Part shown: positions 3,303 to 24,156 of the stretch, piece by piece
How positions within the stretch are numbered: the stretch's first letter is position 1
How the letters are laid out: each line of letters starts with the position of its first letter
From: a virus
DNA length: 64,000 bases
Strand: one strand, 5' to 3'
Virus record (IMG/VR): IMGVR_UViG_3300046820_002568
Location: 1 to 64,000 of that record
Position numbers and translations under genes: made by a program
The notes under the pieces: model-generated
The model's database searches: none
Told to the model about the DNA's origin: nothing
The model's input: the letters and a program-made list of their open reading frames with translations, nothing else

Positions 3303-3869
3303 ATGAAAACTAAAATTATATACTCTTTTTTATTTATTTTACTTTGTGTAAGTGTAATTGCTTTCAACGCAAAAACTGAAACCACTTGGAGCAAATATTA
3401 TGAACTTGGTAAGGATGAAGGAGCAATTCCCTCTTACAGGATGTTTTACTTAATTGAGACTTACTCAGATAGTTTTGGTGTTCCAAAGCATATTGCATAT
3501 AATGTAGCATTTAAAGAGACAACATATAGGGGTCCTTTGGATACTACATATAATCCTTATAGAACTTCAAATGCCGGAGCTGTTGGAGCGATGCAAATTA
3601 TGCCAAGATATGCATCTTACTTTGCCGGTTTTAATGTATCAAGAAAACAAGTTATGAATGATTTAGAGCTCAATGTTTGGTTATCAATGAAGATTCTTGC
3701 AAAACATTATAAAACCTATAACAACTGGGCTTTGGCTTGTGGGGCATACAATACAGGTAAACCAGTTTTGAATGGTTACGCAAAGTATTGCGGAAGTACC
3801 AAAGATTTTACTAATCAGTGGGTTGGTCCGGATTCTTTGAAGACTCAATTTTCTCTTGCAAAACTCTGA
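3303..3869 (+). CDS. lytic transglycosylase (SLT) with N-terminal signal/anchor
   Basis: Catalytic KET, SNAGAVGAMQIMP and AYNTG motifs; hydrophobic N-terminus; TTTG-N19-TAACTTTG promoter at 3267-3297. Confidence 0.85.
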   Translation: MKTKIIYSFLFILLCVSVIAFNAKTETTWSKYYELGKDEGAIPSYRMFYLIETYSDSFGVPKHIAYNVAFKETTYRGPLDTTYNPYRTSNAGAVGAMQIMPRYASYFAGFNVSRKQVMNDLELNVWLSMKILAKHYKTYNNWALACGAYNTGKPVLNGYAKYCGSTKDFTNQWVGPDSLKTQFSLAKL

Positions 3870-5250
3870 CGAATTCTGTCTGTAACATCTTCAAGAATTT
3901 AATATAAGCCGAATCCTCTTTGTTTGGGTCATACTTATATTTCCCTTTTGGTGGTCTGCTTGACCTTCCAAAGTAATTAAGCCCTGAGATATTTGTAATA
4001 CACTTATGTCCTCCACTGTTTGCTTGGATTATATCCCAAGCTGGAATCTGAATACTATCAAGTTTTTCAAAATCCTCCTCAGAAAGTTCTGAAGTTGGTT
4101 TTGCCATGAGAGCCTTTATCTCCATAAGATACTTTGCCCCATCTTTCATATCCAAAAACTTCTCTCCATAAATTGCCGTGAAATCTTTAAATGTAAAACC
4201 CACCGAACCTTCTTTAGCCGCAGTTTCAGAAATATATTTAATCGTAGAAAGTGGAACCTTTCTATCTTTGAGTTGTTTTTCCCACTTACCAAGTACCTCT
4301 TGGGCAATCTCACCAAGATTAACACCCTTTAGTTCTCTTTCTTTTTTGAATGGATTACAAGAAGCCTGAAGTAATCCTAAAGGCCAAGCAATTACTAAAA
4401 AGTCTGCCTCAGGATTGTTCTTAAATGGAGTATATCTATCATAAGAACCTGGTTTTGTCATTACTCCTCCACCATATTGAACAATAATATTACCCTTAAC
4501 TTCAGGGTATTCTTTCATCTTTTCAACATAAGCTTCTTTGTTCTTTTCAAGAGCTTCAAATCCGGCATATCCTTCATCTTCCATTATCTCCCTTATTTTA
4601 AGGAATAAATTTAAAAGAGAAGGTCTTGACTCCATAACCAGTCTTTCCAAGAAATTTGGTTTGTTTTTGAACGCCAGAAGTAATTTGTTTGTTACAAGTC
4701 CGAGCATCATTCTATTCCTTTTAGCTGAAGAATCTTTATCAAACTTATAAATGTAATTCATCACAATTTCAGGTGTGATTTCATTCTTTGCAAAATCGGC
4801 ACTGTCCACCATTGAAATTGTTGCAACATCTTCTGTTGGAAATAAATCTGACTTTGGTATAATCTGAGAAAGTGTCTCCACATTTGACCTTGACTGTCTA
4901 AATGATTTTGAACCAGTTTCTTCAGCTCCAGCCTGTCTGTCGTGGTGGTCCGTATGAATTATAAACATTGGTTTACCGTGAGCAAAGTCAACAAGGACTG
5001 GCATCACTTCACCATTTGCGTCGGCTTTTTTAACTGCAAATTCCCTGTCACCATATTGTATTACTTCAGTGTCAACAACTTCAATTCCGTTTGACTGAAG
5101 ATAATCTCTCATTGCTATTGCGGTAGTTACTCCGTCAAGCTAAAGGTCCTGGTGAAAGTAGATTTTCGCTTTTTTGTAGCGATTCGCGAGAGATTTAATA
5201 TCTCTCAATCCACTTTCTACCAGGACTATATTGTTTTTTCTGGAAGTCAT
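3811..5250 (-). CDS. DHH-family phosphoesterase interrupted by in-frame TAG (5140-5142); candidate translational bypass, 477 aa
   Basis: Frame from ATG 5250 reads ...KIYFHQDL*LDGVTTAIAMRDY; downstream VLVDFAH, HTDHHD and SGGH motifs. Confidence 0.8.
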
Positions 5251-5254
5251 TAAT

Positions 5255-6157
5255 TTATTTTTTAAATAAATACTTAGTTAATTGTATTAATTCATTTATT
5301 TCTATAGAACATTTAGTTTGTTTAGAACAATTTTCATACTCAGATATTATTTCTAAATTTTCTTTAGCCGCCAATATTTCAGGTAATATTTTGTTTTTGA
5401 ATCCTTCGTGAATACTATATTTATGGTCTATATGATAATATCCCCTACCTATTTTTAAATTTTCAGGATTTATAACTTCTTTATATTTTTTATAATTTTT
5501 GGCAGTAATCATTCTCACCTTTTTTTTGAAATTTTCATATTCTATAATTTCTTCCTCGGTTAAGTAAATTTGTATTGACTCATAAAAACATTTTTCACAT
5601 ATAAATTTTTTACCTTTTTTGTTAAAATTTACATATGTTTTATTACTAATGTGACCATTTTCACATTCTACAGTAAATTTACTATTCTTACCATTAATTT
5701 CTGAAATTGATATTAATTTAAATTTTTTTTCTCTTACTACCTTGTTTAAAAATTCTTCATTAATTATATTTTGATTTTTTTTAATTTTAACCTCTTCTCT
5801 TTTGGATGGGTTTAAATCTCCCTTCCATTTTTGGGAATATAATTTTTTTAATCTACTTACTTCATCTTCACCTAAAAAATCATCCCACTTTCTATTATCC
5901 CCATATCTTCCATTTCCTTCACCAGTACACTGACAAGGTCTACATATTTGAATATCTTTAGACATTTTGTCTTTAACTAAATGACAAGCACTAATAGAAT
6001 GTAATTTATCAGGTGTTTTACAGTTCGGATTATCACAAGACCATATAACCTTTAACGCAGAATTTCCCTTCTTTTCTTTCAGTATTTCCAAGTCAACTAA
6101 CTCATAGTAGACAGGCTTTGATTTTAAATAATAGGGCTTCCAAACAGACTTAATCAT
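5255..6157 (-). CDS. free-standing HNH homing endonuclease with Zn-finger/NUMOD-like region
   Basis: C-terminal YHIDHKYS...ENLEIISEYENCSK HNH core; CxxC clusters; very AT-rich. Confidence 0.75.
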   Translation of the reverse strand: MIKSVWKPYYLKSKPVYYELVDLEILKEKKGNSALKVIWSCDNPNCKTPDKLHSISACHLVKDKMSKDIQICRPCQCTGEGNGRYGDNRKWDDFLGEDEVSRLKKLYSQKWKGDLNPSKREEVKIKKNQNIINEEFLNKVVREKKFKLISISEINGKNSKFTVECENGHISNKTYVNFNKKGKKFICEKCFYESIQIYLTEEEIIEYENFKKKVRMITAKNYKKYKEVINPENLKIGRGYYHIDHKYSIHEGFKNKILPEILAAKENLEIISEYENCSKQTKCSIEINELIQLTKYLFKK

Positions 6158-6228
6158 ACAACTAATATATTATATAAATATATCATTGTAAGTAAAAATC
6201 AATCTAATTCTTTATGAAAATTAAAAAA

Positions 6229-6600
6229 TTATTCTAATGTAAGTAAGTACTTGAGTTTATTAAATCCATGTAACATTTCATCTCTTAAATTTAAGAGGTC
6301 TGAATCTAGTTGTGGGTCAAATACTTCAGTAAGTTCAATCAAGAAAATACAAACTCCATCTATAAAGTTTTGAACGGATATTTCAGAAATGTCCTGTCCT
6401 TGTATTGTGTATCCACCCTGATATGATGGTCTTCCGTGTTTACCCATACATGCTTCAACAAAATCATCAATTAATTCATCTAAATCACCATAAAGATTTC
6501 CGTATGCCTGATGTTTTGCGTAAGATTTTGTTTGCCAGTGTAAAAATTTTAGTTGTATTTGAGATTCAACTAATTTTTTGATTATCTCTGAATTTTCCAT
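6229..6600 (-). CDS. ferritin/Dps-like protein (DUF5856-like)
   Basis: LHWQT.SYAKHQA....Y..LDELIDDFVE and LRDEM...NKLKYLLTL. Confidence 0.75.
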   Translation of the reverse strand: MENSEIIKKLVESQIQLKFLHWQTKSYAKHQAYGNLYGDLDELIDDFVEACMGKHGRPSYQGGYTIQGQDISEISVQNFIDGVCIFLIELTEVFDPQLDSDLLNLRDEMLHGFNKLKYLLTLE

Positions 6601-23977: not shown

Positions 23978-24156
23978 GTTTGAATTAAATAAGTTACGAT
24001 ATAGGATATTGAAACCCCTAGATACAAAAGCCCCATCAAGCTTAAAATAAATCTCTCAGGCTTGATGAGGGCTCTTATAAATCTAAAAACTACATTGACA
24101 ACATATAATATGTTGAAAACAAGTAGAAAGATGAAAATACTATCGATATTAAGCAT
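23974..24156 (-). CDS. small two-TM membrane protein
   Basis: Start MLNIDSIF; two hydrophobic segments. Confidence 0.65.
   Translation of the reverse strand: MLNIDSIFIFLLVFNILYVVNVVFRFIRALIKPERFILSLMGLLYLGVSISYIVTYLIQT

Follow-up and report, generated by a model that had tools for sequence, protein, structure and literature searches.

The stretch of phage DNA analysed here (64,000 nucleotides, referred to as the window) is part of a 140-kb contig, a genome fragment of about 48% completeness which uses the standard genetic code. On its minus strand lies a gene predicted to encode a DHH/DHHA1 phosphoesterase, whose reading frame is interrupted early by a stop codon placed between two CUU leucine codons, and which is preceded by a gene for an HNH-like protein ending 4 nt ahead of the DHH start (Table 1). 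Codons 9 to 35 of the DHH gene coincide with a region in which the mRNA is predicted to form a long helix. The motif TATTTAT, found before both genes, precedes 19 of the 80 genes of the contig and, judging from this count, is a possible phage promoter. Motifs resembling a Shine-Dalgarno (SD) sequence stand before just 4 of the 80 genes, a scarcity that only hints at a Bacteroidota-like host. The sole tRNA gene of the contig is a tRNA-Met (CAT) at positions 1306-1379 of the window (minus strand), and a search of the contig for a gene encoding ribosomal protein bS21 found none.

Table 1. Features of the interrupted DHH locus, in coordinates of the window
Feature	Position	Strand	Basis
Approximate extent of the mobile cassette (HNH gene, new DHH 5' end, stem and stop)	5113..6228	-	Comparison with intact locus L001
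HNH-like endonuclease gene, 300 aa, H-x-D-H...N...N at residues 242-276	5255..6157	-	Motif and weak fold matches
TATTTAT motif before the DHH start (second copy at 6173-6180, before the HNH gene)	5266..5272	-	Motif count
First 36 codons of the DHH gene (ATG at 5250-5248), cassette-borne N terminus	5143..5250	-	Reading frame, comparison with intact alleles
Outer mRNA helix with two variable hairpins, proposed bypass stimulator	5146..5226	-	Fold, controls, homologues
Proposed take-off codon CUU (Leu36)	5143..5145	-	CUN in 37/37 interrupted alleles
In-frame UAG stop (UAG, UGA or UAA in relatives)	5140..5142	-	Reading frame
Proposed landing codon CUU (CUU, CUG or CUA in relatives, 6-11 nt past take-off)	5137..5139	-	Allele comparison
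Rest of the DHH/DHHA1 phosphoesterase gene, 441 codons and stop, under purifying selection	3811..5136	-	Reading frame, dN/dS

Searches of Pfam, PHROGs names and PDB sequences gave a name to neither the DHH nor the HNH-like protein, and the assignment of the former rests on its motifs and on structural modelling. With the AlphaFold model of an intact relative (L001, 96% identical), Foldseek returned PggH (E 8e-4) and then, more weakly, PAP phosphatase, RecJ, GdpP and NrnA, while residues 10 to 81 matched a RecJ model weakly and far under the cut-off (E 5e-4). Invariant residues are D32, D81, D94-H95-H96 and G406-G407-H408, which correspond to the D-x-D-G, D, DHH and C-terminal GGH motifs. In the window, CUU-UAG-CUU splits the H-Q-D-L-D-G metal motif, placing six extra bases between the codons of its two Asp residues; among homologues retrieved by protein search, the H-x-D-[L/T]-D-G motif is unbroken in 79 of 80. 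In DHH enzymes the Asp residues of this motif bind metal, so that neither a product carrying a two-residue readthrough insert nor one restarted at the next AUG should be an active enzyme. After the proposed landing, decoding would restart at GAC (Asp, 5136-5134).

By means of DNA pattern scans we retrieved 70 interrupted loci, some of them from the same contig, which comprise 37 distinct alleles; since the site recurs in so many loci and in many samples, an assembly error was ruled out. Two further hits, L131 (Enterococcus-like DNA by eye) and L153 (Lactococcus), were set aside as chance pattern matches; no allele was found in cellular genomes, and no second hop site of comparable quality in the contig. 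In all 37 alleles the interruption has the form CUN-stop...CUN, with UGA, UAG or UAA directly after the take-off codon and a gap of 6 nt in 30 alleles, 8 nt in 2, 9 nt in 2 and 11 nt in 3. The third bases of the take-off and landing codons differ in 12 of 36 (CUU/CUG, CUG/CUU, CUC/CUU and CUU/CUA). Patterns that permitted UUR leucine codons retrieved no UUR interrupted allele, and UUA or UUG is present in 40 of 50 intact ones. The CUN/CUN pairs with their wobble differences, the use of all three stops and the gaps that change frame suggest that one peptidyl-tRNA-Leu leaves the message and re-pairs with it.

The sequence downstream of the stop is full length in 37 interrupted gene bodies and truncated in 2, and dN/dS is 0.04 between the window and L095, both interrupted, and 0.04 to 0.22 across interrupted pairs. 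The first-pass annotation had argued that the stop is not a random lesion, and this is borne out by the use of three different stops, by the four lengths of the gap and by the purifying selection acting on the downstream body. In the stem-bearing allele L100 the body is truncated, apparently by deletion: around positions 2600-2660 it merges into a tail like the C terminus of a 502-aa gene which follows the DHH gene in L019 (4105-5613) and L084 and resembles a second endonuclease.

The predicted outer helix comprises 19 bp, in which positions 5226-5219 and 5217-5207 pair with 5164-5146, leaving a bulged A at 5218 and including one G-U pair; the coordinates and pairing described in the first-pass annotation were thereby reproduced. 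Within it lie two hairpins, one of 7 bp (5206-5200/5194-5188) and one of 5 bp (5182-5178/5170-5166), the latter corresponding to the GCG/CGC pairings of the first-pass annotation, and its closing nucleotide at 5146 is immediately followed by the take-off, stop and landing codons. The minimum free energy of the stem is -40.8 kcal/mol (z -9.5), a stability reached by 0 of 200 dinucleotide shuffles and, in the codon-level control that had been proposed, by 0 of 1000 synonymous recodings of the stem peptide (z -9.7 with genome codon usage, -6.2 with uniform usage). When the 140-kb contig was scanned on both strands in 9-nt steps, considering 90-nt segments with at least 33% GC, the stem was the most stable segment sampled. 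The next most stable folds lie at about 24000-24106 of the window (minus strand, -37.8 kcal/mol per 90 nt) and at about 99020-99180 of genome C1 (-37.3 kcal/mol per 90 nt). The GC-rich codons that had been called atypical are indeed rare genome-wide, CTG accounting for 45 of 2689 Leu codons and CGC for 16 of 1140 Arg codons. A search with Rfam covariance models gave only a chance miRNA match (E 5) and no intron, ribozyme, SECIS or PYLIS, and no Rho-independent terminator, sought as a short GC hairpin with a U run, was found within 4900-6400.

The occurrence of the stem follows that of the stop: it is present in 36 of the 37 distinct interrupted alleles, retrieved with patterns that did not require the 5' arm, and in 0 of 49 intact ones, counts which do not represent independent origins, as all interrupted alleles probably descend from one cassette. 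Furthermore, every one of the 41 loci retrieved with a stem-only pattern is interrupted, and the first gaps of 9 and 8 nt were among them. Folding energies of the intact alleles range from -2.6 to -15.5 kcal/mol, and 30 of the 31 interrupted alleles in the synonymous-control set lie between -30 and -42 kcal/mol (z -4.7 to -12.5). The comparison with uninterrupted homologues had been put forward as a check on the proposal that the stem stimulates bypassing, and its outcome supports that proposal. The stemless exception is L111 with near-identical contigs, where the stop is present together with a native, non-pairing 5' half and a second nonsense codon follows 84 codons on in all four contigs reaching that far. 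This recombinant allele (L111:1256-1345, minus strand; also L119, L128, L136 and L137), in which the hop site lacks a 5' arm and a TAA interrupts the DHH body further on, is likely a pseudogene and provides a single natural negative control.

The outer helix is 97.7% paired across 30 alleles, and its pairing of 95 to 98% compares with 71 to 78% in the inner branches. Since the inner hairpins fold differently from allele to allele, the conserved element is the long closing helix; the multi-branched fold of the first-pass annotation, with its short GCG/CGC pairings, exists in the window but its inner part is poorly conserved. Covariation, which had also been suggested as a check, was found in part: at two outer-helix positions G-C and A-U are swapped on both sides (in 12 and 3 of 33 alleles), whereas 10 of the 19-20 outer pairs are invariant. 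Cells that depart from Watson-Crick pairing comprise 51 G-U, of which 33 belong to one invariant pair, versus 4 A-C, an excess that favours the mRNA strand. In interrupted alleles, third-position diversity is as low as 0.12 in the arms, compared with 0.46 between them and about 0.5 to 0.7 downstream; at the arm positions of intact alleles it is 0.45, so that the conservation of the stem exceeds what recent descent alone would give. The 3' arm is also constrained by the protein motif. Judging from these comparisons, the outer helix is under selection. Its 3' end falls at -1 relative to take-off in 18 alleles, at +1 in 13 and at +2 or +4 in 5, which means that the helix abuts or overlaps the take-off codon and has no exact end there; the claim that it stops precisely at that codon therefore describes the window and the 18 alleles at -1, but not the other 18.

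The stem and the stop are borne by a mobile cassette. Identity between the window and the intact locus L001 breaks at about 6228 and returns at about 5113, so that the nuclease gene, the stem, the stop and a replaced 5' end of the DHH gene arrive together on an element of about 1.1 kb. The N terminus thus supplied has 34-36 codons versus mostly 30-32 in intact alleles (about 4-5 longer). In L001 the DHH start overlaps the DUF5856 stop, and the cassette swaps this translational coupling for a start region of its own. For the HNH-like protein, neither Pfam nor Foldseek with its model gave a match; the best structural matches of its C-terminal part were two HNH nucleases, both weak (Z 4.9 and 4.1), and HNH clusters were among the Atlas leads. 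Close relatives of this protein (52-62%) are encoded upstream in 34 of 64 interrupted versus 0 of 79 intact loci, which makes it, on comparative grounds, the probable homing driver of the cassette, and the insert probably renders the allele immune to it. The stem and stop persist in about 30 loci without the HNH gene, as in L095. On a FastTree tree of the DHH bodies rooted at the midpoint, where gain and loss are indistinguishable, the interrupted state needs 11 changes, 6 of them forced by strong branches, and intact and interrupted alleles occur as sisters (L001/L095/window and L023/L096).

Considering these elements together, we infer that the stem likely acts in cis as the RNA signal for a short programmed translational bypass, or stop-hop, which pushes the ribosome from behind. 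The ribosome would unwind the stem while translating codons 9 to 35 and would pause with peptidyl-tRNA-Leu on CUU and the stop codon in the A site. At this point the 3' arm would be partly buried in the ribosomal mRNA channel and only the inner part of the helix could pair; zipping of the remaining GC-rich pairs would pull the mRNA out, favouring a forward slip and blocking a backward one. The tRNA would then re-pair at the next CUN, 6 nt on, and decoding would resume at Asp, restoring the D-x-D-G motif. Such a pull would be harmless in elongation, and at a stop with a waiting A site it could dislodge the tRNA and prevent its return. Stem, stop and replacement N terminus would travel between phages together with the HNH gene.

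About 9-12 nt upstream of the P-site codon are assumed to lie inside the ribosome. In folds of the truncated RNA, hiding 12, 9, 6, 3 or 0 nt before take-off gave -17.8, -21.4, -25.4, -32.2 and -40.0 kcal/mol, respectively; about 22 kcal/mol would thus be released only over some 12 nt of forward movement, near the 6-11 nt of the proposed hops. In these models, refolding behind the ribosome fits the geometry of the stem. No conserved hairpin was found at or after the stop, the 60 nt downstream giving -6.9 in interrupted versus -8.1 in intact alleles, and a take-off/A-site tetraloop hairpin containing the stop was represented only by weak, inconsistent folds of -3 to -10 kcal/mol. The sequence AGGA lies 7 nt before landing in the 6-nt alleles, but it is part of the 3' arm of the stem, and this phage rarely uses SD motifs. 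Interrupted alleles have a basic N-terminal extension and an RYKK-like stretch, of which the latter is also found in intact ones. It is possible to go one step further and propose a minimal class of bypassing, in which the long helix abutting take-off would be the sole dedicated stimulator and a zipper stroke of about 12 nt would set the hop length, a proposal on which we are evenly divided.

A real hop for which the stem is needed in another capacity (spacing or slowing of ribosomes, exclusion of a trailing ribosome, blocking of release factors or of backward slips only, factor binding or stabilisation of the mRNA following the pause) seems unlikely to us, even if the association and the selection data would fit it equally well. 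The 5' arm begins 18-24 nt after the AUG, and this, with the longer N terminus, suggests a link to initiation or spacing; on the other hand, the 3' end of the helix is kept at -1 to +4 of take-off in 36 of 36 alleles, and most of the energy resides in the last 12 nt, as a zipper would require. Removal of the gap from the RNA by cleavage and ligation or by micro-splicing, with the stem as recognition structure, is in our judgement very unlikely. It would account for gaps in any frame, and several outer-helix pairs are indeed invariant in sequence; yet it requires neither an in-frame stop in three forms nor codons of the same tRNA differing at the wobble base, and the Rfam search found no intron or ribozyme. 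To our knowledge, gaps of 6-11 nt are also far smaller than any bacterial intron.

We regard as highly improbable that the gene is dead, or yields an N-terminally truncated product from a downstream AUG, with the stem as a DNA-level hitch-hiker of the cassette. Transfer has spread the cassette alleles across the tree, and recent inactivation could hide in some pairs, but the low dN/dS between the window and L095, the maintenance of stem and stop after HNH loss and the G-U bias all speak against it; moreover, some alleles have Ile or Val in place of the downstream Met, and a product begun at that position would be missing the second Asp. That the stop is read through, recoded or decoded by a suppressor tRNA, and that the stem stimulates readthrough, is scarcely credible: the gap of the window is in frame and C follows the stop in 32 of 34 alleles, a weak termination context, but UAG, UGA and UAA all occur, the 8- and 11-nt gaps shift the frame so that readthrough cannot restore it, two residues would be added between both motif Asp in the region aligned to the N-terminal part of RecJ, and in this contig (about 48% complete) there is no suppressor tRNA and TAG closes 8 of 77 long ORFs. 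An alternative genetic code was likewise rejected.

The site most frequent among the alleles is CUU-UGA-C, the same slip-prone context as the +1 frameshift site of prfB (RF2). Different from prfB, a +1 slip here would lead into a dead frame, take-off codons CUG and CUC cannot slip by +1, and the product needs a hop of 6-11 nt.

The established natural cases of programmed bypassing are T4 gene 60 and the yeast mitochondrial byps. The closest parallel to the stop-hop proposed here is gene 60 and its MobA HNH homing cassette (Manning and Atkins, bioRxiv 10.1101/2022.08.31.505936; Wills et al., bioRxiv 10.1101/2024.12.09.627546), with which it shares matched take-off and landing codons with wobble latitude, a stop right after take-off and a stem 5' of take-off, as well as an element of about 1.1 kb that comprises an HNH gene and a replacement target region and often loses the nuclease while retaining the gap. 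Different from MobA, the target is an unsplit DHH phosphoesterase rather than a topoisomerase large subunit split with CTE and NTE; compared with gene 60, the codons are Leu rather than Gly/Asp, the gap is 6-11 rather than 20-50 nt, and no conserved take-off/A-site hairpin or downstream barrier is present. The T4 5' stem-loop, to which the stem had been likened and for which a role in propelling bypassing has been proposed (bioRxiv 10.1101/2022.08.31.505936), has its end 9 nt upstream of take-off and shows no conservation beyond the clade of T4, whereas the stem described here is longer, abutting and conserved, so that it can be retained as an analogue but not as a homologue. By analogy, the DHH cassette would work like gene 60 bypassing, but, given the differences in target, codons, gaps and structures, it falls outside the MobA element family.

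The layout equals that of the synthetic in-frame stop-hops in Escherichia coli (Weiss et al. 1987, reviewed in PMC5009743), where unstimulated hops occur at a low level in constructs without stimulators; here it occurs in nature, is conserved and goes together with an RNA stem. The Magnusiomyces mitochondrial byps and the candidate terminase bypass of Streptomyces phage Hau3 are alike in that mobile inserts are made harmless by matched-codon bypassing (PMC5009743), but byps span 27-55 nt, involve an unassigned sense codon and depend on features of the host mitochondrion, and the Hau3 case depends on a rare UUA codon. A 2016 review knew of no natural in-frame stop-hop (PMC5009743), and our literature search, of incomplete coverage, found no published description of this DHH cassette.

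Across the 37 natural alleles one conserved helix is combined with different stops, wobble bases and hop lengths, and a decayed stemless allele accompanies them; the long-debated model in which mRNA refolding pushes the ribosome thus becomes testable in a 120-nt reporter, without the other signals of gene 60. If the minimal class is real, it would include the first natural in-frame stop-hop and would represent a general route by which homing endonucleases render a catalytic motif immune, with no need of an intron or intein. It would also follow that gene callers cut such genes short and that hops underlie some of the apparent pseudogenes and readthrough cases in phages.

A few uninterrupted or divergent DHH alleles deserve mention. 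In L053 and L054 about 70 residues are inserted in frame after the QYGD motif of the DHH protein, and distant, stemless intact homologues (40-45%) occur in phage genomes of 634 and 642 kb (L151, LR745206, and L152, LR756502). Intact DHH genes in L021 (2127-2879), L022 and L057 (2132-2881) lie behind a distant 250-aa relative of the HNH gene (29-32%); their motif region is rewritten as VVIVTH..D-L-D-G without interruption, which is perhaps another way of escaping a nuclease.
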